Shown: positions 6,998 through 42,135 of the stretch, piece after piece | How the letters are laid out: each line of letters begins with the position of its first letter | Numbering within the stretch: the first letter of the stretch is position 1 | Assembly (NCBI GenBank): GCA_934119935.1 | Contig: CAKOSX010000001.1 | Span: forward strand, 332,299-396,298 | Source of the DNA: an uncultured Clostridia bacterium | Lineage (GTDB): Bacteria; Bacillota; Clostridia; TANB77; CAG-508 | Length of the DNA: 64,000 bases | Direction of reading: 5' to 3' | Made by a program: the position numbers and the translations under genes | Notes under the pieces: model-generated | Databases searched by the model: none | Seen by the model: the letters and a program-made list of their open reading frames with translations, nothing else | Told to the model about the DNA's origin: nothing

Positions 6998-7004
6998 GTA
7001 TAAA

Positions 7005-7085
7005 GGGAATCGAAAAGGAGGAATAGAAATTAGTCCAGTGGACTAATTTCCCGACGCGGCTCGGCGATTCCCGCTACCTGCTCCA
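7005..7085 (+). other. tRNA 3'-end mimic element, copy 1 (Gly-UCC type)
   Basis: gggaatcg-aaaaggaggaatagaaattaGTCCagtGGACtaatttcccgacgcggctcgg-CGATTCCCGCTACCTGCTCCA. The last 21 nt are identical to the 3' end of the adjacent tRNA including CCA. The 5' gggaatcg is the reverse complement of cgattccc. Confidence 0.7.
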
Positions 7086-7253
7086 AGATTGCGAACCCAT
7101 ATTGATATAGAGATATTTCAATATGGTGTTCTTTTTTTGTTAAAAGTAATAGTGCTAATAAATGTTTTTATTAGCTTTAGATAATGCATACGTATTAAAG
7201 TTATTCTAAACACAAGGGGGTACCAGGAAATTCCTGATACCTCCATTGTGTTG

Positions 7254-8536: not shown

Positions 8537-8590
8537 GAATGAAAAGAGAAATTGGAGTTTTATATAACTTTAATTTTTTTCTTTTTATAA

Positions 8591-8671
8591 GGGAATCGAA
8601 AAGGAGGAGCAGAAATTAGTCCTGAGGACTAATTTCCCGACGCGGCTCGACGATTCCCATCATCTGCTCCA
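8591..8671 (+). other. tRNA 3'-end mimic element, copy 2 (Gly-CCC type)
   Basis: Same core as copy 1, but the 3' part is cgattcccATCATCTGCTCCA, matching the 3' end of tRNA-Gly(CCC) rather than Gly(UCC). Confidence 0.7.
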
Positions 8672-8726
8672 TAAAGTAAAAGAAAAATTAGAGCTTTTTT
8701 AAAACTTTAATTTTTTATTTTTTTGA

Positions 8727-8795
8727 GGCAATCGAAAAGGTGTAATAGAAATTAGTTTGGAAAATTAAATTTTCGATGTGGCTTGGCGATTTTCA
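8727..8795 (+). other. Degenerate third copy of tRNA 3'-end mimic element
   Basis: ggcaatcgaaaaggtgtaatagaaattagtttgg...gatgtggcttggcgattttcat; recognisably the same core but decayed. Confidence 0.5.
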
Positions 8796-8813
8796 TAGCA
8801 TATTCTATAATAT

Positions 8814-8842
8814 TTGACATTTTATGTAAAGCGTAGTATAAT
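8814..8842 (+). promoter_or_regulatory. Consensus sigma-A promoter of GC-rich cassette
   Basis: TTGACA-17 nt-TATAAT exactly. Confidence 0.65.
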
Positions 8843-8919: not shown

Positions 8920-9328
8920 TATGGCACACATTCTCGTAAACGCGTTCGCATTATCGATGCTTCCTCTGGAGGCTATGAATTTTGTTCGGGTGAAGAAGAT
9001 CAACCCGAATGAAGTTCCGGCAGACGTTGAATCTGCCATCGGCCATACGGACACTGCGAAAGTGGTGTCTGGCATCTTGGGTTTCGAGGTGAAGCCTAAC
9101 CGGGTTAGCATTAAGCTGACCGAGAGCGACGTCTTGTACGTTGCTCAGTACACTGGGCCGAGGCTGCCGGAGGGTGCAACCACCTTGCCGGAAGGCGCAA
9201 GCCTCGAGTTCTTCGAGGTCACCTTCCACAAGGAAGGATGCCGTGGATGCCATGGCTACGATTCTGGCACTTGCCAGAATTGTATCTTCAGCTTCTGGCT
9301 GAGCGGCGCTCCCATCATGGAGCGATAA
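8920..9328 (+). CDS. Hypothetical protein (136 aa) in high-GC (about 55%) cassette; possibly DUF1874-like
   Basis: ATG at 8920 with RBS aaaaggagagag preferred over the GTG at 8867 used by the ORF track; starts MAHILVNAFALSMLPLE. Confidence 0.55.
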
Positions 9329-21819: not shown

Positions 21820-21875
21820 TAATCATAATAATAAATATATTAAGAAAATTTAAGTTTTATTACAATTATTATAAA

Positions 21876-21912
21876 GCAAAAGGGCCCCGCTAAGCAGGGC
21901 CCCAGCTTGAAT
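21876..21912 (-). terminator. GC-rich hairpin terminator of high-GC gene
   Basis: gggccccgct-aagc-agggcccc hairpin immediately 3' of 21921..22622. Confidence 0.5.
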
Positions 21913-21920
21913 GCTGAGCT

Positions 21921-22622
21921 TTAATGAAGGGTTTGCAGAGCGGCATAAACGCCATCGTTAACCACGATGAAATTGCTACCACAGTTAGGGTCGTACTCCG
22001 GCATGTCCGAGGCGTCTCCACTGTACGTAACTAGGTACTTGCCATCAAGGCGATACTGAAACTGGAATGGGTTTAAAAAGTAGTCCCAGTTTCTCCAGAC
22101 ATCCTGAGTAAGTACATTGGTAACAGTTGTGGTGACGCCTGCAGATTCTGCAAGTGCGTGGAACTTGTTGCTGTAGCCAGCAGTGAATCCAAAAACGAAC
22201 TTGTGGATTCCGCTTGGGAAATAGGTTTCCAAAACCTTCAAATTGAATTCGGGGTCGTAGTAGCTTCCATAGATAATGTTCGAAAGCTTGCGATACCGTT
22301 CTTCGAAGATTTCATACCTGTCCTGAGGGTATATACTCATAAGTTTGTTCGTAACGAACTCGTTAACCTGGAATCTAATCCAAAGGTCAAGTTTAATGTC
22401 GTTAAGAGTCTGCTCATGAGCAACGTCCTGGGGAAGAAGGTCAAGGCTTGCCTTGGTCTCTCCTAGCATGTAGCCAATCTGGTAACCAAGAGCATCATTG
22501 TTGTGTTCTGAGATGAACTCAGAAGATTTCAACTTGGTACGTGACAATTCACTGATTGCATCACGAACATTATACGTTGGATGCGTTATCTGTGTCGTGC
22601 CAGACCGTTTGTCCTCTTTCAT
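21921..22622 (-). CDS. Hypothetical protein (233 aa), high-GC foreign-looking gene next to tRNA-Gly
   Basis: Intact ORF, GC about 47%. Confidence 0.5.
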   Translation of the reverse strand: MKEDKRSGTTQITHPTYNVRDAISELSRTKLKSSEFISEHNNDALGYQIGYMLGETKASLDLLPQDVAHEQTLNDIKLDLWIRFQVNEFVTNKLMSIYPQDRYEIFEERYRKLSNIIYGSYYDPEFNLKVLETYFPSGIHKFVFGFTAGYSNKFHALAESAGVTTTVTNVLTQDVWRNWDYFLNPFQFQYRLDGKYLVTYSGDASDMPEYDPNCGSNFIVVNDGVYAALQTLH

Positions 22623-22755
22623 AAAAACTCTCCTTTATAAAAAAATATTTAGAATTAGCATTCAATTCGAACAATCTAAATAAAGACTGCTCAAAGTGCA
22701 CAAATTCTAAATATACTATACCATAAAAAGGTAAAAAATTCAATTAACAAAGACC

Positions 22756-22830
<75 letters not shown>

Positions 22831-22999
22831 AAATATGTTTATATTATAATAAAAATAGACAAGAAATACAATAGAAAAATTAAAATTTTGTAAATGTGTA
22901 ATTACTTATTAAAAGCAAAAAGGCCAACTGAAATAGCTGACCTCCTTGCCCACAAGCTAGGTATTTGCCTGTCCTGTGAATGACAATACTAAGTTGCGA

Positions 23000-23737
23000 T
23001 TACCGCCACTTGCGGATAGATTCCCACTTTTTGCGGTACTCCTCATGCATAATCTTTTCGCCGCTAGAGAGAGGCACACGCATGCATTTCTCGTGGTATC
23101 CAGCGTCACGGAGATACTGGACAACTTTGTAGCCTCTGGTTACGTACGTATGACCATCACGGTATACGAACACTATAACGCCGTTGCTCATGTAATAGGT
23201 ACCAAGGTTTTCCTTGGTAAAGCCATCCATGCGGAAATTAACCAGCACGGGGTATGTGATACTTTCGTAACAAGTATACTTTACCCGAAGCCCTTCCATC
23301 GGAATCATGAGACTTTTTCTCATAACGACGGGACTCAAGGCTCCGATATGGTGTTCGTTGCAGAACTTTTCACATTCTGCCGAGAAGTTTTCTTCAGGAG
23401 TTTTTTTAGCCTTTTCCTGAAGATATTTCCAACGTTTTGCTTCACGCTTCGGACAATCCGAGGCAGAGAAGGGAACATAGAAATTAGCCTCTTTGAACGA
23501 ATTTTCCACGAGAGTAGCAATAGCCCGAGTTGTGTACGGAGCTACATAGTACTTGCTTTGGTGGATAAAACCTATAACCGTTGAGTTACTTACTGCGTAA
23601 CAGCCGTTGAATTTTTGTACAAAGAAATCCACGCTGAGTGTTACCTCATGCTTGGTGTCCTGGAAAACTGCTATCATTCCATGTGTGACACGGAATGAAT
23701 CGTGGATGAGATCGCCCAATGAATAAGTATTTGTCAT
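23000..23737 (-). CDS. Hypothetical protein (245 aa), high-GC
   Basis: Longer and more protein-like than the overlapping + strand ORF 22976..23584. Confidence 0.45.
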   Translation of the reverse strand: MTNTYSLGDLIHDSFRVTHGMIAVFQDTKHEVTLSVDFFVQKFNGCYAVSNSTVIGFIHQSKYYVAPYTTRAIATLVENSFKEANFYVPFSASDCPKREAKRWKYLQEKAKKTPEENFSAECEKFCNEHHIGALSPVVMRKSLMIPMEGLRVKYTCYESITYPVLVNFRMDGFTKENLGTYYMSNGVIVFVYRDGHTYVTRGYKVVQYLRDAGYHEKCMRVPLSSGEKIMHEEYRKKWESIRKWR

Positions 23738-23839
23738 TGTTTGTTACTCCTTTTAACAAAAAGTTTATAGGGTGTATTTAATTATGCACCGAAGCACATA
23801 ATTAATAAACGGACTATGACAATTTTACCATATTTACAT

Positions 23840-24060
23840 AAAATAGTCAAACCAAAGGTGGCGAAAATAGAGTACAATTTTTCTCTTTCCACACAATATA
23901 CTTAAGGTGGCGAAAATAGAGTACGTTTTTTCCTCCGTCCCCAAAATGCAAAAATGCACTGTACATTTTTTCCTCCGTCCCCAAAATGAAGTCCCCAAAA
24001 TGAACGAACGAAATGAACGAGATGAACGAAATGTACGAAATACAAAATGGTACTTGATTT
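23840..24060. repeat. Repeat cluster: aaggtggcgaaaatagagtac x2, inverted GGGGACGGAG units x2, (a)tgaacga x3
   Basis: Direct reading of sequence. Confidence 0.75.
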
Positions 24061-29145: not shown

Positions 29146-29460
29146 ATGAGTGAAGTAAATTTAACAAGTAAAAACTATAGTGAAGAAGTAGAAAAAACTA
29201 CTATTCCAGTACTTATAGACTTTTGGGCTACTTGGTGCGGACCATGTAGAGCGATGATGCCGGTAGTAGCAAAAATTGCAGACGAAAATGAAGGAAAGAT
29301 AAAAGTATGCAAAGTAAATGTAGATGAAGAGCCAGATTTAGCAGAAAAATTTGGAGTAATGAGCATACCAACATTTGTTGCAATAAAAAATGGTGAAGTA
29401 CTTGGAACAAGCATAGGAGTACAAGACAAAGAAGAAATATTGAAAATGTTTGATAAATAA
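29146..29460 (+). CDS. trxA: Thioredoxin
   Basis: WCGPC active site, 104 aa. Confidence 0.9.
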   Translation: MSEVNLTSKNYSEEVEKTTIPVLIDFWATWCGPCRAMMPVVAKIADENEGKIKVCKVNVDEEPDLAEKFGVMSIPTFVAIKNGEVLGTSIGVQDKEEILKMFDK

Positions 29461-29540
29461 AAATATAAAAATTAGATTTCAATGTGAGATCTAATTGTTT
29501 TTACAAATAAAGTATACATAAAATAAAAGAGCTAAAAACG

Positions 29541-29569
29541 TTGAAATATATGGAAAAATGTAGTATAAT
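29541..29569 (+). promoter_or_regulatory. Consensus sigma-A promoter of GC-rich cassette
   Basis: TTGAAA-17 nt-TATAAT. Confidence 0.6.
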
Positions 29570-29660
29570 TAAATAGATGGTACTTTTTTATGCCGTCCGA
29601 GATTTCGGGAGGCATGAGCCTCCGAAGTTTCGATATATTGAATATTAGGAGGCAATAAGT

Positions 29661-30686
29661 ATGAAAAACATTGAAAGAAGACGGATGAATATGGTGAAAA
29701 CAAGCACCGGAGAAAGGGGAAGCCTGTGGCTTGAAAAACTAGCCATTCCTGAAACGGTAAAAGTTACTGTGAACGGTGAAAAAGTTGTTCCGGCAGGTTT
29801 CGATATTTACGGTCAGCCTTTTTTTACCAAAGAGCAGTGCAAGATGTTCGAGTTTAAGGAAGAAGAACTCAGAAGAGAAAAGAACGATAACAACTTTGAA
29901 TTGAAAGCAGAGGTCACGTACGAAGAAAGAATGTTTGACGTACCGAGAACCAACTTTGATTCGGTTAATGGCATTCAGGAATCTCTCCAGAGTTTGGATA
30001 CCTTAAGTAAGATGATCAAAAACCGGAAGATCTACCACAAAGCATATCCGAAGATTATGCTGAACGAGTTCGTTTTGTTCGGTTATATAAAACTCGAATG
30101 TGCTGGTGGAGTATCTTTTACAACAGACAGGACTCAATTCACTGCGGATATTGAGATATTTCAATATTTCAAGAACCGCAACGAGCAGACCTGTATGTTT
30201 GGTCAGTCTGCTTACACCATTCCGGCACCCCATTCGGTTTGCCCGTGCTGTGGACAAACTATCACAATTCATGATGTGAAAAACAACCCTTGTGTGAAGG
30301 TGCATGGTAAAGTATATCATGAAAGGTGCTGGCAGGAGTTCAGGAAGCTTTCTGAAATCGATTTTTTCACCAGCGTGATAAGTGGTACCTATTCCTTTAC
30401 GGAATATAAGTTTGATTTCAGGGAGAAGGAAGGAAAGGAGCCTTATTATTCCGAGGCGGTGTTCCACACTGTCGACGGAGACATAAAAATCAGTCGGTAT
30501 GGTGAATTCACGGAGGTCGAATGGCTGGACAACTACAAGCCTTTTGACCTGCGTCGAGTCATGAGAGAGCTGAATAAGGGTATTGCCACTGATGGAGAAA
30601 GAAAGGTGTTCTTCATCGAGGATTGCTGGAACAATGCACATGCGTGCATTTATAAAGCAAGAAAGGCGACCACACACACTGCATAA
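29661..30686 (+). CDS. Hypothetical protein (341 aa) with CPCC...H..C zinc-ribbon-like motif, high-GC cassette
   Basis: Strong RBS taggagg; GC about 45%; no recognisable family. Confidence 0.55.
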   Translation: MKNIERRRMNMVKTSTGERGSLWLEKLAIPETVKVTVNGEKVVPAGFDIYGQPFFTKEQCKMFEFKEEELRREKNDNNFELKAEVTYEERMFDVPRTNFDSVNGIQESLQSLDTLSKMIKNRKIYHKAYPKIMLNEFVLFGYIKLECAGGVSFTTDRTQFTADIEIFQYFKNRNEQTCMFGQSAYTIPAPHSVCPCCGQTITIHDVKNNPCVKVHGKVYHERCWQEFRKLSEIDFFTSVISGTYSFTEYKFDFREKEGKEPYYSEAVFHTVDGDIKISRYGEFTEVEWLDNYKPFDLRRVMRELNKGIATDGERKVFFIEDCWNNAHACIYKARKATTHTA

Positions 30687-30710
30687 AATCTGACAACCAA
30701 TTCAATGTTA

Positions 30711-30750
30711 CCCCCGCCCGGGACTCGTTCCTGGGTGGGGGCTTTTTAAT
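30711..30750 (+). terminator. GC-rich rho-independent terminator
   Basis: cccccgcccggga-ctcgt-tcctgggtggggg then CTTTTT. Confidence 0.75.
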
Positions 30751-30814
30751 AAAATATAGAATATATTTATTAAGGACAACAAAAAAAGTACTAATTATAA
30801 TTAGTATCTTACTT

Positions 30815-30896
30815 TGGTGCGGATGAAGGGACTTGACGAGCCACGTCGGGAAAACCGTCCACCGGACGCTTTTCTAATCCTCCTTTTCAAGTCCAC
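30815..30896 (-). other. tRNA 3'-end mimic element, copy 4 (Leu type)
   Basis: Reverse complement: gtggacttga-aaaggaggattagaaaagcGTCCggtGGACggttttcccgacgtggctcg-TCAAGTCCCTTCATCCGCACCA. The 3' 22 nt equal the 3' end of the adjacent tRNA-Leu. The 5' ggacttga is complementary to tcaagtcc. Confidence 0.7.
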
Positions 30897-30951
30897 AAAA
30901 ATTCTCAAAGGTAACAAAAAAAGATACCAATTATAAATTAGTATCTCATTC

Positions 30952-31035
30952 TGGTGCGGATGAAGGGACTTGAACCCCCACGTCGTTGACACTGGTTCCT
31001 AAGACCAGCGCGTCTGCCAATTCCGCCACATCCGC
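30952..31035 (-). tRNA. tRNA-Leu (anticodon UAG), long variable arm, CCA encoded
   Basis: Reverse complement GCGGATGTGGCGGAATTGGCAGACGCGCTGGTCTTAGGAACCAG...CATCCGCACCA; anticodon loop CTTAGGA. Confidence 0.9.
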
Positions 31036-31170
31036 ATATGTTATTTTTAACACTTAATTATAATAGCACAATAATGTTTTGATTGTCAAGTATAAAATTA
31101 AAAAAATATAAAATTTTATAACAAAATTTTAAAAGGCTTTTAAAGAGTAAAGTTTTATGATATACTTTAT

Positions 31171-40532: not shown

Positions 40533-40657
40533 GCCAGTACCTTGTATAGCCTATAAAATTGACATATTATGTTTAGTATAGTATAATAAAAAAAGGTCAT
40601 TTCAATTGTTGTGCACGGATGTAATTACATTTTATCACAAAGAAAGGAAGGGTTTTT

Positions 40658-42031
40658 ATGAAGCAACGGAGGCAAAGAAGGAGGGCCCACACAGATTTTT
40701 ATGTAGTGGGAATACTATTTTTGCTTGTAATTGTTGGAGTGTGGGTGTTTAGCAACACACACTTCCTAAGAGGTACGTTCATTGGAGGAGTTGACTGCTC
40801 GTATTTAACAGTCGACGATGCCTTGAACAAAGTTCAACAGGAGGCAGGAGAATACACAAATAAGCTGTACTTTATCGATGAAACGACATATGATGTGAAA
40901 AACTGCGAGATTGGAGTTGTTTTTGAACGGGATAAGTTCGAGAGCGTTTTCAAGAGACAGCATGATGACAAAAATGTTAACAGAGTTTATGGAGTTAGCG
41001 ATGTAACGTCGATTAACGAAGGACAAGTCGCAATGTATCTGACAACGATTCCGGAATTGCAGCAGGCGAATATGGTGGAGCCGAAAGATGCTCACATAAC
41101 TTGGGATGGTGCAAGTTTTGGAACCGAAAAAGAAACCATTGGCAACATGATTGATTTTAACGAAGCACTGGAATTCACGCTTCAAGAGCTTAGAGCCGAT
41201 GAAAACGAAATCTATCTTTCTGATATAACTCGGTCAGTACCTAGTGTGACTGAGGGAGATCTTGAAGGAAGAGTGGCGTATCTGAATAGACTTTTGAAGA
41301 GCTGTATTAACATTACTTTAAGCGATGGATCTGTTGTGACGCTTGACTATAACACGATAAAGTCGTGGATCGGGCAAGATGAGAATGGAGACTTCTCTAT
41401 TAATGTTAATGCTGGCGTTCCGAGTTTTGTTGAAGAATTGGCTACAAAGGTCGATAAGGCAAATGCAACAATGCGTTTTAAGGCTACCAACCGGAGCAAT
41501 CTTGTTAGCGTAAAGGTTCCCAAGAGCCGTAGAGCTAAGTTAAACAAGGAAGCCGAAGCAAATCAGCTGGAAGCATTGCTGGGGTCTACCGAACCTGTGG
41601 ATTGTACTCCAATCTATGAAGGAAATTTAATTTCCGAAGCCGATTTGTCAAATCGTGTCGAAATCGATATTACAAATCAGCATGTCTGGATGTATAAAGA
41701 CAATACGCTCATTGCAGACACAGACTGCGTCACTGGCAACGAAAGTGCTGGACACAGTACGCCTACGGGAGTGTACAAGTTGATATACAAAGAAAGGGAC
41801 AGATATCTCAGAGGCAAAAACGATGACGGAACTGACTATTGTTCGTTTGTGAAATACTGGATGCCGTTCAACGGAGGAGTCGGATTGCACGACGCATCGT
41901 GGCGCAGTAAATTTGGCGGAGACATTTACAAAAACGGTGGTTCACACGGTTGCGTAAATCTTCCCAGAAGCGTTGCGGAAACGATATATAACAACATCGA
42001 CAGTTCCTATTTCATAATCGTGTACAAGTAA
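40658..42031 (+). CDS. L,D-transpeptidase (YkuD domain) with N-terminal anchor and VanW-like region
   Basis: C-terminal HDASWRS...GGSHGCVNL catalytic His/Cys motif; locally elevated GC. Confidence 0.75.
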   Translation: MKQRRQRRRAHTDFYVVGILFLLVIVGVWVFSNTHFLRGTFIGGVDCSYLTVDDALNKVQQEAGEYTNKLYFIDETTYDVKNCEIGVVFERDKFESVFKRQHDDKNVNRVYGVSDVTSINEGQVAMYLTTIPELQQANMVEPKDAHITWDGASFGTEKETIGNMIDFNEALEFTLQELRADENEIYLSDITRSVPSVTEGDLEGRVAYLNRLLKSCINITLSDGSVVTLDYNTIKSWIGQDENGDFSINVNAGVPSFVEELATKVDKANATMRFKATNRSNLVSVKVPKSRRAKLNKEAEANQLEALLGSTEPVDCTPIYEGNLISEADLSNRVEIDITNQHVWMYKDNTLIADTDCVTGNESAGHSTPTGVYKLIYKERDRYLRGKNDDGTDYCSFVKYWMPFNGGVGLHDASWRSKFGGDIYKNGGSHGCVNLPRSVAETIYNNIDSSYFIIVYK

Positions 42032-42094
42032 TTGAAAAGTTAGGTGCAGTGAAAATTGCAAATAATTTAGAAATTACAAGTGCAACAGAGAACC

Positions 42095-42135
42095 CTATGC
42101 AGAGGCGAGCTCAATGAGCTCGTCTTTGCGTTTTG
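42095..42135 (+). terminator. Rho-independent terminator
   Basis: gcgagctc-aat-gagctcgtc hairpin then TTTGCGTTTTGTG. Confidence 0.5.

Follow-up and report, generated by a model that had tools for sequence, protein, structure and literature searches.

An apparently horizontally acquired single-gene cassette beside tRNA-Leu in an uncultured gut Clostridia bacterium, with an mRNA predicted to mask its own translation start

Leaders that sequester the Shine-Dalgarno (SD) sequence are found in translational attenuators of the ermC and cat type and in RNA thermometers, and in hok/sok-type control the 3' fbi element of a type I toxin mRNA pairs with the 5' tac element. Prophages carry morons, 'more DNA' units that are transcribed independently (PMC3594210), and tycheposons are tRNA-flank genomic islands built by integrative elements (bioRxiv 10.1101/2020.12.28.424599). 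Here we describe a gene for a 341-aa protein, set in a 64,000-nucleotide stretch of an uncultured Clostridia genome (the window), that shares features with each of these systems; for its leader and the adjoining tRNA mimic, the only relevant papers that a search of the literature returned were those on morons and tycheposons. Like a phage moron, it is a single gene with its own predicted promoter and terminator, differs in GC content from its neighbours and lies between genes that are adjacent in relatives. Unlike a moron, it sits among chromosomal housekeeping genes rather than in a prophage, has no PHROG match, and is fixed and vertically inherited in the species; tblastn of 50,697 phage records and a scan of IMG/VR returned no relative, so a phage origin is unsupported. 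On balance, the cassette is probably an old, fixed, horizontally acquired unit with its own promoter and terminator, whose mRNA would be off by default through three predicted pairings, the mimic being a separate element. Since it is a self-contained unit in whose mRNA the ribosome-binding site and the start region are predicted to be concealed by the transcript itself, we take the gene to be real and, on this prediction, tightly controlled, and not tied to the neighbouring mimic.

The transcription unit is complete in the window at 29541-30747 and consists of promoter, 84-nt leader, 341-aa ORF and 13-bp terminator. To its left, the intrinsic host terminator of trx (29470-29502, + strand), read as the hairpin AATTAGAT...ATCTAATT followed by GTTTTT, marks the border of the inserted DNA. 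A promoter scan placed a sigma-A type promoter at 29541-29569 (+), with TTGAAA (29541-29546), a 17-nt spacer and TATAAT (29564-29569) giving 11/12 matches, and the predicted mRNA 5' end, AUGGUAC (29577-29583, +), lies 7 nt past the -10 box. The leader contains the hairpin P1 (AUGCCGUCCGA-GAUU-UCGGGAGGCAU; 29590-29615, +), taken from the RNAalifold consensus, and an anti-SD segment, GCCUCCGA (29618-29625, +), with two possible partners, the SD (P3) and the 3' strand of P1 (P2). The SD itself, AGGAGGC (29647-29653, +), stands 7 nt upstream of the ATG and pairs with 29618-29623 in minimum free energy (MFE) folds. The ORF list gives the gene as 29661-30686 (+), with a 5' clamp box, AACAUUGAA (29667-29675, +; codons 3-5 in the window), that is the exact complement of the 3'UTR clamp box UUCAAUGUU (30701-30709, +); the latter is conserved in the 3'UTR of most homologues and abuts the 5' side of the intrinsic terminator. 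This terminator, found by terminator scan at 30711-30747 (+; hairpin 30711-30741), has a 13-bp stem with 10 G-C pairs, a 5-nt loop and a T run. Outside the cassette, and all on the minus strand, lie a hairpin resembling a terminator, placed after the mimic in the direction of the tRNA (30781-30808, read in sequence), the tRNA-Leu 'mimic' (30815-30894, read and supported by structure counts) and the tRNA-Leu(tag) gene (30952-31035; ARAGORN and Rfam), on whose 3' flank the cassette stands, 265 nt from the tRNA 3' end. A preliminary description of this DNA had reported the promoter, the GC-rich 13-bp terminator and the adjacency to tRNA-Leu and the mimic, all of which hold; its 341-aa gene also stands, at a measured GC content of 42.5% rather than about 45%.

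The protein carries the motif SVCPCCGQT...YHERCW, part of which had been noted previously as resembling a zinc ribbon, and in 42 homologues its residues C194, C196, C197, H220 and C223 never vary. Besides this invariant CxCC...H..C cluster, the family has a C-terminal domain reading HTxDGD...EWxxNYKPF. We found 67 homologous clusters, and a profile search (E<=1e-3) extended these to 1391 clusters at 50% identity. Neither the protein nor its remote relatives gave a significant match in Pfam, PHROGs, PADLOC or NCBIfam, and the PDB sequence profile search gave no match; the best profile scores, E 0.007 (PADLOC REase_II) and 0.31 (PDB), are noise. An AlphaFold2 model (pLDDT 84, pTM 0.76) predicts a soluble multi-domain fold, for which Foldseek returned no hit at E<=0.001 in PDB or BFVD. 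Judged from these alignments, the 341-aa product belongs to a large uncharacterised family with a conserved Cys3-His-Cys cluster. A family of this size, carried without annotation, is thereby defined, and it appears to travel as a unit reaching from promoter to terminator among uncultured gut Clostridia.

The leader folds with z = -5.95, and none of 200 shuffles folds as well. Its most conserved element, P1, is present in 15/15 aligned leaders with 98.8% of cells paired, the changes being mostly G-U wobble. Across the same 15 leaders the anti-SD GCCUCC is paired with the SD (P3) in 90% of cells and with the P1 3' strand (P2, the alternative) in 92.5%, while P0, in which the 5' AUGGUAC pairs with the start-codon region, reaches 85% with 2 compensatory pairs; controls in which the partners were slid gave 31-58%, against 85-98.8% for the four pairings. 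P0 is also found in the MFE fold of the window leader. The preliminary description had proposed three consecutive hairpins, which is partly right. In the first, ccga/tcgg is the inner part of the longer conserved P1. The second, ggaggc-atga-gcctcc, would form only as an alternative, in competition with P1 and with the GCCUCC-SD pairing, and the third, cgaa-g-ttcg, would have a 1-nt loop and is neither conserved nor sterically credible. That description had also named conservation in homologous cassettes as a test of the leader and comparison with Rfam as a check. The leader is conserved in those cassettes, so the first objection that it raised against itself fails; the comparison with Rfam matched no family. 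At the gathering threshold Rfam returned only tRNAs in the window, and at E<=10 over 29450-31100 only tRNA and noise, with no family for the leader, the 3' box or the mimic.

A covariance model of the leader has a single match in the window, at this site (69.6 bits), and the leader is exclusive to this gene family. We had considered that the leader might be common to the other GC-rich cassettes of the window; the covariance model search rejected this, the only shared feature being a motif in the promoter spacer.

The arrangement resembles an ermC attenuator in having four segments, predicted to pair either as 1:2 and 3:4 (SD masked) or as 2:3 (SD free), and there may be a short ORF before segment 1. 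As in an attenuator, both sets of predicted pairings are kept, in 90-99% of cells, and P1 with P3 is the MFE structure in 7 of 10 leaders folded independently. The ermC attenuator differs in several respects. Here the putative mini-ORF lacks an SD, so that it could only be leaderless, and its frame is not conserved; nothing points to a role of the gene in antibiotic resistance; and two further predicted pairings mask the start codon and the first codons. In about 13 of 16 distinct leaders an ATG or GTG stands 7-8 nt past the -10 box, and 2-3 leaders lack the mini-ORF; the reading frame that it opens commonly begins MV.F, ranges from 4 to about 29 codons and has no conserved frame beyond codon 4. 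The 5' end AUGGUAC, which can form one strand of P0, may also be the start of a leaderless mini-ORF.

In the mechanism we propose, a single-gene unit, moron-like but chromosomal, would have entered the 30 nt that separate trx from the 3' end of tRNA-Leu(tag), where its near-consensus sigma-A promoter and strong terminator would give it autonomous expression. Its transcript would be held silent by three pairings: that of the anti-SD GCCUCC with the SD, which would mask the latter; that of the mRNA 5' end with the start codon; and that of the 3'UTR box before the terminator with the codons just after the start codon. P1 would compete for the alternative partner of the anti-SD, so that if P1 were melted, segment 2 would capture the anti-SD and free the SD. 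Melting might be the work of a ribosome on the putative leaderless mini-ORF, of processing or of a trans-acting factor. Of this scheme, the parts, their conservation from one context to another, the insertion and its vertical inheritance are shown, and the two ends of the transcript, its pairings, its default silence and what would release it are inferred. The full lock is not universal, since one subfamily (L002, L032 and L034) keeps P1 and has neither the anti-SD nor the 3' box. The combination of SD masking, start-codon masking and a 5'-3' clamp gives a candidate new cis-regulatory mRNA design that is not in Rfam.

Covariation in the leader is weak, with two-sided change at 3 pairs and most positions invariant or wobble, and the sequence might be conserved as a binding site for a protein or the ribosome. 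The leader might be a ligand- or protein-binding element, either a small riboswitch or an autoregulatory site bound by the encoded zinc-cluster protein. Its stem sequences are conserved far beyond the needs of pairing, with 23 invariant columns though the proteins are only ~40% identical, P1 persists in the subfamily that lost the anti-SD, and its restriction to one gene family would also fit such a role. The loop of P1, however, is variable (GAUU, UACU, AACU, GAAU and others) and offers no conserved unpaired nucleotides for a pocket, Rfam gives no match, and the chain of SD, anti-SD, anti-anti-SD and partner would by itself explain the frozen sequence. We therefore consider a binding element unlikely, if the least unlikely of the alternatives, and retain the masked-start reading of the leader.

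The origin of the cassette can be approached by comparison with a sister species (L199-L201; Trx 81% identical), which has an empty site with neither cassette nor mimic. There the gene order is ATPase-pda-trxB-trx, a 30-nt terminator, tRNA-Leu(tag), a 54-aa ORF and rumA, with the tRNA gene 30 nt from the trx stop codon; in the window the cassette has trxB, trx, tRNA-Leu and rumA as neighbours. The third-position GC content of the ORF (GC3) is 0.49 as against 0.15-0.30 in host genes, and a GC peak of ~1 kb coincides with the homologue in nearly every other host locus examined, L010 being a weak case. The empty sister site and the GC excess at third codon positions together argue that the cassette is foreign and self-contained, as the preliminary description had supposed. 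The gene is present on 22/22 contigs read that encode identical Trx, and its dS of 0.22 falls within the 0.14-0.29 of the flanking genes. With dS equal to that of the flanks and dN/dS of 0.20, the insertion is old and fixed, and the comparisons indicate that it is inherited vertically within the species, the gene being, on these substitution rates, under purifying selection. A protein identity of only 89-91% beside near-identical flanks had prompted the idea of fast or diversifying evolution, which the same dS and dN/dS values reject.

Homology among the cassettes runs from the -35 box to the terminator, in unrelated chromosomal contexts and with proteins ~40% identical, and upstream of the -35 box no sequence is common to homologues from other contexts. 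The promoter is found at the matching place in homologues from unrelated contexts, most of which read TTGnnTTTATGTAAAnnTGnTATAAT, and a GC-rich terminator follows the clamp box; the homologues of L010 and L011 are without promoter and leader altogether. We found no donor or vehicle, the neighbours including none of phage, IMG/VR or plasmid type.

It could be argued that the gene is native, its high GC3 arising from selection, for example for a stable, structured mRNA, and that the sister species lost it. The flank-like dS and the fixation of the gene in the species speak for this, and GC3 stays high in every host, as expected of selection. Homologues nevertheless occupy different loci in every lineage and their similarity ends exactly at promoter and terminator, the sister site is a clean 30-nt shared terminator, and six other unrelated genes in the window show a matching GC3 shift and single-gene layout. 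A native origin is accordingly quite improbable, rather more so than a binding role for the leader, and horizontal acquisition remains our reading of the locus.

The position of the cassette beside a tRNA gene invites comparison with tRNA-flank islands. As in these, the 3' flank of a tRNA gene is occupied and partial tRNA copies are nearby, and later insertions push older material away from the tRNA (L050; L019 compared with L022). Unlike them, the cassette is not bounded by tRNA-end repeats and has no integrase, and the island is a single gene. As in integron cassettes, a compact single-gene unit lies at a hotspot next to a folded, covarying imperfect palindrome, the mimic; unlike them, it has its own promoter and terminator, no attC-like 3' site and no integron integrase or attI, and the mimic is part of the tRNA repeat unit and is absent from homologous cassettes. 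The mimic is made up of a 7-nt 5' segment that complements a T-loop copy (AAAAGGAGG), of a hairpin that covaries (CCGACGTGGCTCG) and of the 22 nt with which tRNA-Leu ends, CCA included. Over 30 copies 98.1% of positions in its stems are paired and 11 of 19 pairs show compensatory change, a result matched by none of 500 shuffles; its taxonomic range, drawn from a loose genome-wide pattern, is a lower bound. Under an accretion reading, the hairpin at 30781-30808 would be the original terminator of the tRNA. An IMG/VR contig (L191) was considered as a full-length 'parent' of the mimic and rejected, its prophage using only the last 12 nt of tRNA-Gly(ccc), with the mimic beyond.

The preliminary description had seen in this region an architecture of tRNA, terminator, mimic and foreign cassette, and had called for a genome-wide survey of whether mimics and GC-rich cassettes co-occur. 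On one reading the cassette is the cargo of the mimic, or of a tRNA-targeting recombination system, possibly integron-like with the mimic as attachment site, and the four parts form a single mobile architecture. The architecture holds for the 3/3 intact-mimic loci in the window, all of which abut GC-rich cassettes, and recurs at L184; the mimic is folded and covarying, as are integron attC sites; and cassettes lie 3' of a tRNA gene, within 3.6 kb, in 10 of 20 family contexts compared with 4 of 78 background loci. It does not hold as a rule, and the survey rejects co-occurrence, there being homologues without mimics and most mimics being without cassettes. By motif search, with two tRNA-cassette spacers read, homologous cassettes stand in about 13 other contexts without a mimic. 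The GC-rich window cassettes at 21860-24050 and 40559-42130 have no mimic either, and among the mimic loci listed in other genomes that had enough downstream DNA to be scored, only L184 is followed by clearly GC-rich DNA. Of two strains of the same species, one (L022) has the cassette without the mimic and the other (L019) a 1-kb insert between them. The direct repeats of the tRNA end enclose only the terminator and mimic arm, about 135 bp, with the cassette outside. The mimic, between tRNA and cassette, is the only repeat of the tRNA-Leu 3' end; on the far side of the cassettes neither such a repeat nor a mimic is present, and none stands between cassette and trx, and the picture is the same in L005, L031 and L037. 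No integrase gene was found beside any cassette, the 341-aa ORF being the only one between trx and tRNA-Leu. The cargo reading is thus largely refuted and in our view very unlikely; on sequence grounds, the mimic appears to be a small element in its own right, brought together with the cassette only by a common hotspot at the tRNA flank and present independently of it. The idea of mimic and GC-rich cassettes as one system is thereby corrected, and a looser, measurable link takes its place: family cassettes favour the tRNA 3' flank far beyond chance, all 10 tRNA-near contexts being on that side.

Returning to the third of the proposed pairings, 12 of 17 distinct loci allow 8 or more Watson-Crick pairs between the clamp box in the 3'UTR and the start region, directed at codons 2-4 in most homologues. 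In the window, 1 of 2000 shuffles is as complementary, and the clamp is predicted to be paired in both the MFE and the centroid fold of the full-length 1172-nt transcript. The 9-nt complementarity could as well be an inverted repeat in the DNA. That the perfect 9-11-bp inverted repeats AACATTGAA...TTCAATGTT, which bracket the ORF in 11-12 of 17 loci, serve as sites at which the gene body is inverted site-specifically, making it a phase-variable 'inverton' of the sort gut bacteria are rich in, is barely credible, the ORF having a uniform orientation to promoter and terminator in all of about 45 assembled loci, the left repeat lying inside conserved codons, the repeats being short and no recombinase gene being linked, and the RNA reading being consistent with two other start-region pairings.

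As an RNA clamp, the arrangement resembles hok/sok in that the translation start region is predicted to be paired with a stretch immediately ahead of the 3' terminator, in a transcript with a strong promoter and predicted translational silence. Unlike hok/sok, the product is a 341-aa protein with a soluble multi-domain model rather than a small (<60 aa) hydrophobic peptide. At this locus neither an overlapping reading frame nor an antisense RNA was found, and on the minus strand the promoter scan of the unit returned a single promoter-like site, at 30298-30271 (9/12). If the lock works as predicted, the control logic of tiny type I toxins would be extended to a 341-aa protein. More speculatively, the module might belong to a wider set of 'locked-mRNA' genes that spread horizontally among gut Clostridia, in which a strong constitutive promoter feeds a stable, GC-rich, clamped and silent transcript to be released by a trigger (a ribosome on the leaderless 5' AUG, 3' trimming or infection stress), a hok-like fold-back thus serving a large effector such as a toxin or abortive-infection protein; we consider so broad a class unlikely. 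A second window cassette (23000-23737, -) shows a similar arrangement, its 5' end and its 3'UTR each having a copy of a sequence that complements the start codon of that cassette.

Between window positions 29541 and 30747, where the DNA is 41–43% GC compared with ~32% for host DNA, a 341-aa ORF (29661–30686, +) is the sole ORF between a TTGAAA-17-TATAAT promoter (29541–29569, +; 11/12 matches in a promoter scan) and a terminator with a 13-bp stem (10 G-C pairs), a 5-nt loop and a T run (30711–30741, +; terminator scan). The scans, the ORF list and the fold of the leader (z = −5.95 vs shuffled sequence) bear out the promoter, terminator, 341-aa ORF and structured leader of the preliminary description, and the CPCCGQT...YHERCW motif noticed there is found in the ORF. 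Its estimate of about 45% GC for the gene becomes 42.5% on measurement, and its picture of three consecutive hairpins in the leader is at odds with the conserved fold. The leader is kept in homologous cassettes, so the possibility that its structure is a peculiarity of this locus falls away; the comparison with Rfam proposed at the same time, run with the window and the leader region, gave no leader match.

The neighbourhoods of homologues differ (beside pheST, alr/femAB, lexA or a flavoprotein gene, among others), and the gene forms a ~1-kb GC peak in nearly every locus examined. Similarity between contexts is confined to the stretch from the −35 box to the terminator; judged by this extent, the conserved entity is the entire transcription unit. 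Its shared parts are the promoter (TTGnnTTTATGTAAAnnTGnTATAAT in most homologues), AGATGGTAA 7–8 nt past the −10 box, the leader part TTTTAATGCCGTCCGAnnnnTCGGAGGCATTAGCCTCCGA, the Shine-Dalgarno (SD) region, and a 3′UTR box, (A)TTCAATGTTA, directly 5′ of the GC-rich terminator. Over the 64-kb window a leader covariance model picks out this site only (69.6 bits, with the runner-up at 17 bits).

These conserved parts are predicted to form an mRNA lock. Leader segment 1 (GCCGUCCGA) would pair with segment 2 (UCGGAGGC) as hairpin P1, and segment 3 (GCCUCCGA) would then pair with the SD as helix P3; alternatively, segments 2 and 3 would form helix P2 and leave the SD free. Across 15 distinct leaders 98.8% of cells are paired in P1, 90% in P3 and 92.5% in P2, compared with 31–58% for slid partners as the control, and the MFE structure is P1 with P3 in 7 of 10 leaders, each folded independently. 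A further helix, P0, would join AUGGUAA of the mRNA 5′ end to UUAUCAU at the start codon (85% paired, with two compensatory pairs), and the 3′UTR box UUCAAUGUU is perfectly complementary to AACAUUGAA in codons 2–4 (codons 3–5 in the window). This clamp has at least 8 Watson-Crick pairs in 12 of the 17 distinct loci, including L010, where both partners differ in sequence, and in the full 1172-nt transcript the clamp, P0, P1 and P3 are present in both the MFE and the centroid structure. We read this as a transcript from a strong promoter whose translation would be closed by default, all statements about the RNA being predictions. The reading is weakened by the scarcity of true covariation in the leader and by a subfamily (L002, L032 and L034) which retains P1 alone. 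Either a chain of constraint (SD, anti-SD, anti-anti-SD and partner) or a binding protein would account for the frozen leader sequence. The lock may be opened by a leaderless mini-ORF at the predicted +1, where ATG or GTG stands in ~13 of 16 leaders, often coding MV.F; some versions of this putative mini-ORF terminate at the base of P1 and others extend as far as the SD or start codon, and its frame is not conserved.

The leader is predicted to work like ermC-type attenuators or other SD-masking leaders, and the 3′ box like the fold-back element of hok mRNA, although hok, unlike this unit, encodes a small toxin, and no antisense RNA for the unit was found in the window sequence. A second cassette (245 aa; 23000–23850, −) is also predicted to mask its own start codon: AUUGUCAU, just past the −10 box, is repeated as UUGUCAUU in the 3′UTR, each copy being complementary over 8 bp to AAUGACAA at the start codon (equalled in 30 of 1000 shuffles), a pairing which parallels P0 and the 3′ clamp of the 341-aa unit. 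Such start-masking pairing was absent from the other four cassettes examined.

What is new here is a predicted, conserved and hitherto undescribed mRNA control architecture, together with an unannotated protein family. The 341-aa protein had no significant match in Pfam, PHROGs, PADLOC, NCBIfam or a PDB sequence profile. Its homologues (67 clusters of ~350 aa at ~40% identity, from gut metagenomes and Clostridia MAGs) are all unnamed, and none was found in phage records or IMG/VR. Searching 1.84 billion representatives with a profile returned 1391 proteins at E≤1e-3, many of which match the C-terminal half alone, comprising the Cys cluster and an HTxDGD/EWxxNYKPF domain; ten remote relatives sampled had no Pfam domain and no significant PHROG domain. 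Searched with Foldseek at E≤0.001, the confident AlphaFold2 model (42 sequences; pLDDT 84, pTM 0.76), in which the final 37 residues are disordered, matched nothing in PDB or BFVD. Residues C194, C196, C197, H220 and C223 are invariant in 42 homologues, a pattern which suggests a metal site.

The cassette is an insertion, old and fixed. In a sister species (L199–L201, Trx 81% identical) the order ATPase, pda, trxB, trx, tRNA-Leu(tag), 54-aa ORF, rumA is the same, while a single 30-nt bidirectional terminator spans trx to the tRNA 3′ end and both cassette and mimic (a partial tRNA 3′-end copy with a folded arm) are absent; the window species has 1.49 kb in this interval. The unusual composition resides in synonymous positions, with a GC3 of 0.49 for the gene and 0.39–0.66 for six other GC-rich window genes, compared with 0.15–0.30 for ten host genes. 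All 22 contigs read that encode an identical Trx carry the gene, and over five compared genes the window matches L055 and L057 exactly, the organism being known from metagenomes alone (uncultured gut Clostridia). Against diverged strains the gene has a dS of 0.22 (0.14–0.29 for flanking genes) and a dN/dS of 0.20, indicating vertical inheritance under purifying selection since arrival. These values exclude rapid evolution of the gene, and the ~90% protein identity between strains is ordinary divergence.

The preliminary description had also proposed a recurrent order of tRNA, terminator, mimic and foreign cassette. As a general rule this is not supported: homologues occur without a mimic, mimics mostly lack adjoining GC-rich DNA, and within the species the cassette is present whether or not a mimic is; the mimic is an element separate from the cassette. 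Three arrangements occur among strains. The window and L012 have cassette, mimic and tRNA-Leu(tag) (30952–31035, −) in that order; in L022 a 1-kb AT-rich insert separates the cassette from the tRNA and there is no mimic; L019 has this insert too, followed by a mimic and the tRNA. The insert (L022 4090–5110, L019 4070–5120) carries three small ORFs and is situated between the terminators of the cassette and of tRNA-Leu, where the window has its mimic. Sequence past the mimic CCA in L019 equals that past the tRNA CCA in L022, which delimits a mimic unit of ~135 bp (new terminator, spacer and arm) flanked by 22-bp tRNA-end repeats, and the cassette lies outside it. No mimic was found beside distant homologues of the cassette, and among scorable mimic loci in other genomes (those with enough downstream DNA) clearly GC-rich DNA follows in L184 only.

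The cassette behaves like old cargo stranded in a tRNA-flank hotspot, and its family shows a preference for the 3′ side of tRNAs. A tRNA lies within 3.6 kb in 10 of 20 family contexts, compared with 4 of 78 background loci, which come from unrelated taxa; in the ten the cassette is always on the tRNA's 3′ side, and in four of them the distance is within ~300 nt (Leu-tag, Leu-caa, Leu-taa, Gly-tcc). In L050 (941–2714) a later 1.67-kb insertion bounded by exact 20-nt tRNA 3′-end repeats is wedged between tRNA-Leu(taa) and the cassette; in L031 the same two are merely 290 nt apart. The cassette has neither a surviving repeat nor an integrase, and while its position resembles that of tycheposon-built tRNA-flank islands (bioRxiv 10.1101/2020.12.28.424599), tycheposon hallmarks are missing. 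[quoted passage not shown] As an acquired gene islet we consider it to be of an ordinary type.

The mimic is itself a widespread folded element of ~80 nt, present in the window at 7004–7086, 8590–8672 and 8728–8800 (decayed) on the + strand and, as a partial tRNA-Leu 3′-end copy, at 30815–30894 (−); our observations also cover loci L065–L191. It consists of a 5′ segment of 7–8 nt that complements the T-loop/T-stem copy, an invariant AAAAGGAGGA followed by an 11-bp covarying hairpin, and an invariant CCGACGCGGCTYG followed by the final ~22 nt of the upstream tRNA, copied exactly through CCA. Among 30 distinct mimics 98.1% of cells are paired, with compensatory change in 11 of 19 pairs, and none of 500 shuffles was as good; Rfam gave no match. 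At every locus that includes the upstream DNA, the mimic follows its cognate tRNA on that tRNA's own strand, at a core-to-core distance of ~135 nt (~99 nt for Arg-cct). Among the matches listed, which come from MAGs of uncultured gut Clostridia, at least 12 different tRNAs (Glu, Lys, Arg, Phe, Met, Asn, Gly, Leu and others) have such a companion. The terminator after the mimic is often near-identical to that after the tRNA (L111, L119, L129, L141, L153 and window 8537–8800), and where a mimic and a decayed mimic stand in an array behind a tRNA the most decayed copy is farthest from the tRNA, which fits repeated accretion at the tRNA of units of ~135 bp, each with a tRNA-end core, a terminator, a spacer and an arm. 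Neither a recombinase nor an autonomous parent element was found. In the IMG/VR contig L191 (1–6510) a prophage end (baseplate Gp10_C, tail fibre chaperone, Amidase_2 endolysin) adjoins a 12-nt tRNA-Gly(ccc) 3′-end copy, then a mimic and the rumA upstream region; this junction places the phage attachment site at the extreme tRNA 3′ end, unrelated to the mimic arm.

Unrelated GC-rich cassettes share the promoter form TTGACAttttATGTAAAg...TATAAT (8814–8842 and 40559–40587, +; 8362–8334 and ~23843–23815, −; L009 3826, −). Most homologues of the 341-aa gene carry this spacer motif as well, whereas in the 341-aa gene's own promoter the spacer has diverged; the motif's TTTA-TG-TAAA inverted repeat could be a shared operator or reflect common promoter ancestry. 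A GC-rich island at 21860–24050 holds two ORFan genes (21921–22622 and 23000–23737, both −) flanking a second tRNA-Gly(tcc), very unlike the first in sequence (22756–22830, −), with iteron-like direct repeats at ~23840–24030 (AAGGTGGCGAAAATAGAGTAC twice, TTTTTTCCTCCGTCCCCAAAATG twice and GAACGAAATGAACGA-type runs) and no mimic. Beside the tRNA-Gly(ccc) mimics, the cassette at 8921–9328 (+) encodes an STIV B116-like (DUF1874-like) protein (Pfam PF08960, E = 4e-8; PHROG 5063, E = 1e-16; PADLOC Csx16-like, E = 9e-8) and is the window's only GC-rich cassette with a phage-linked family.
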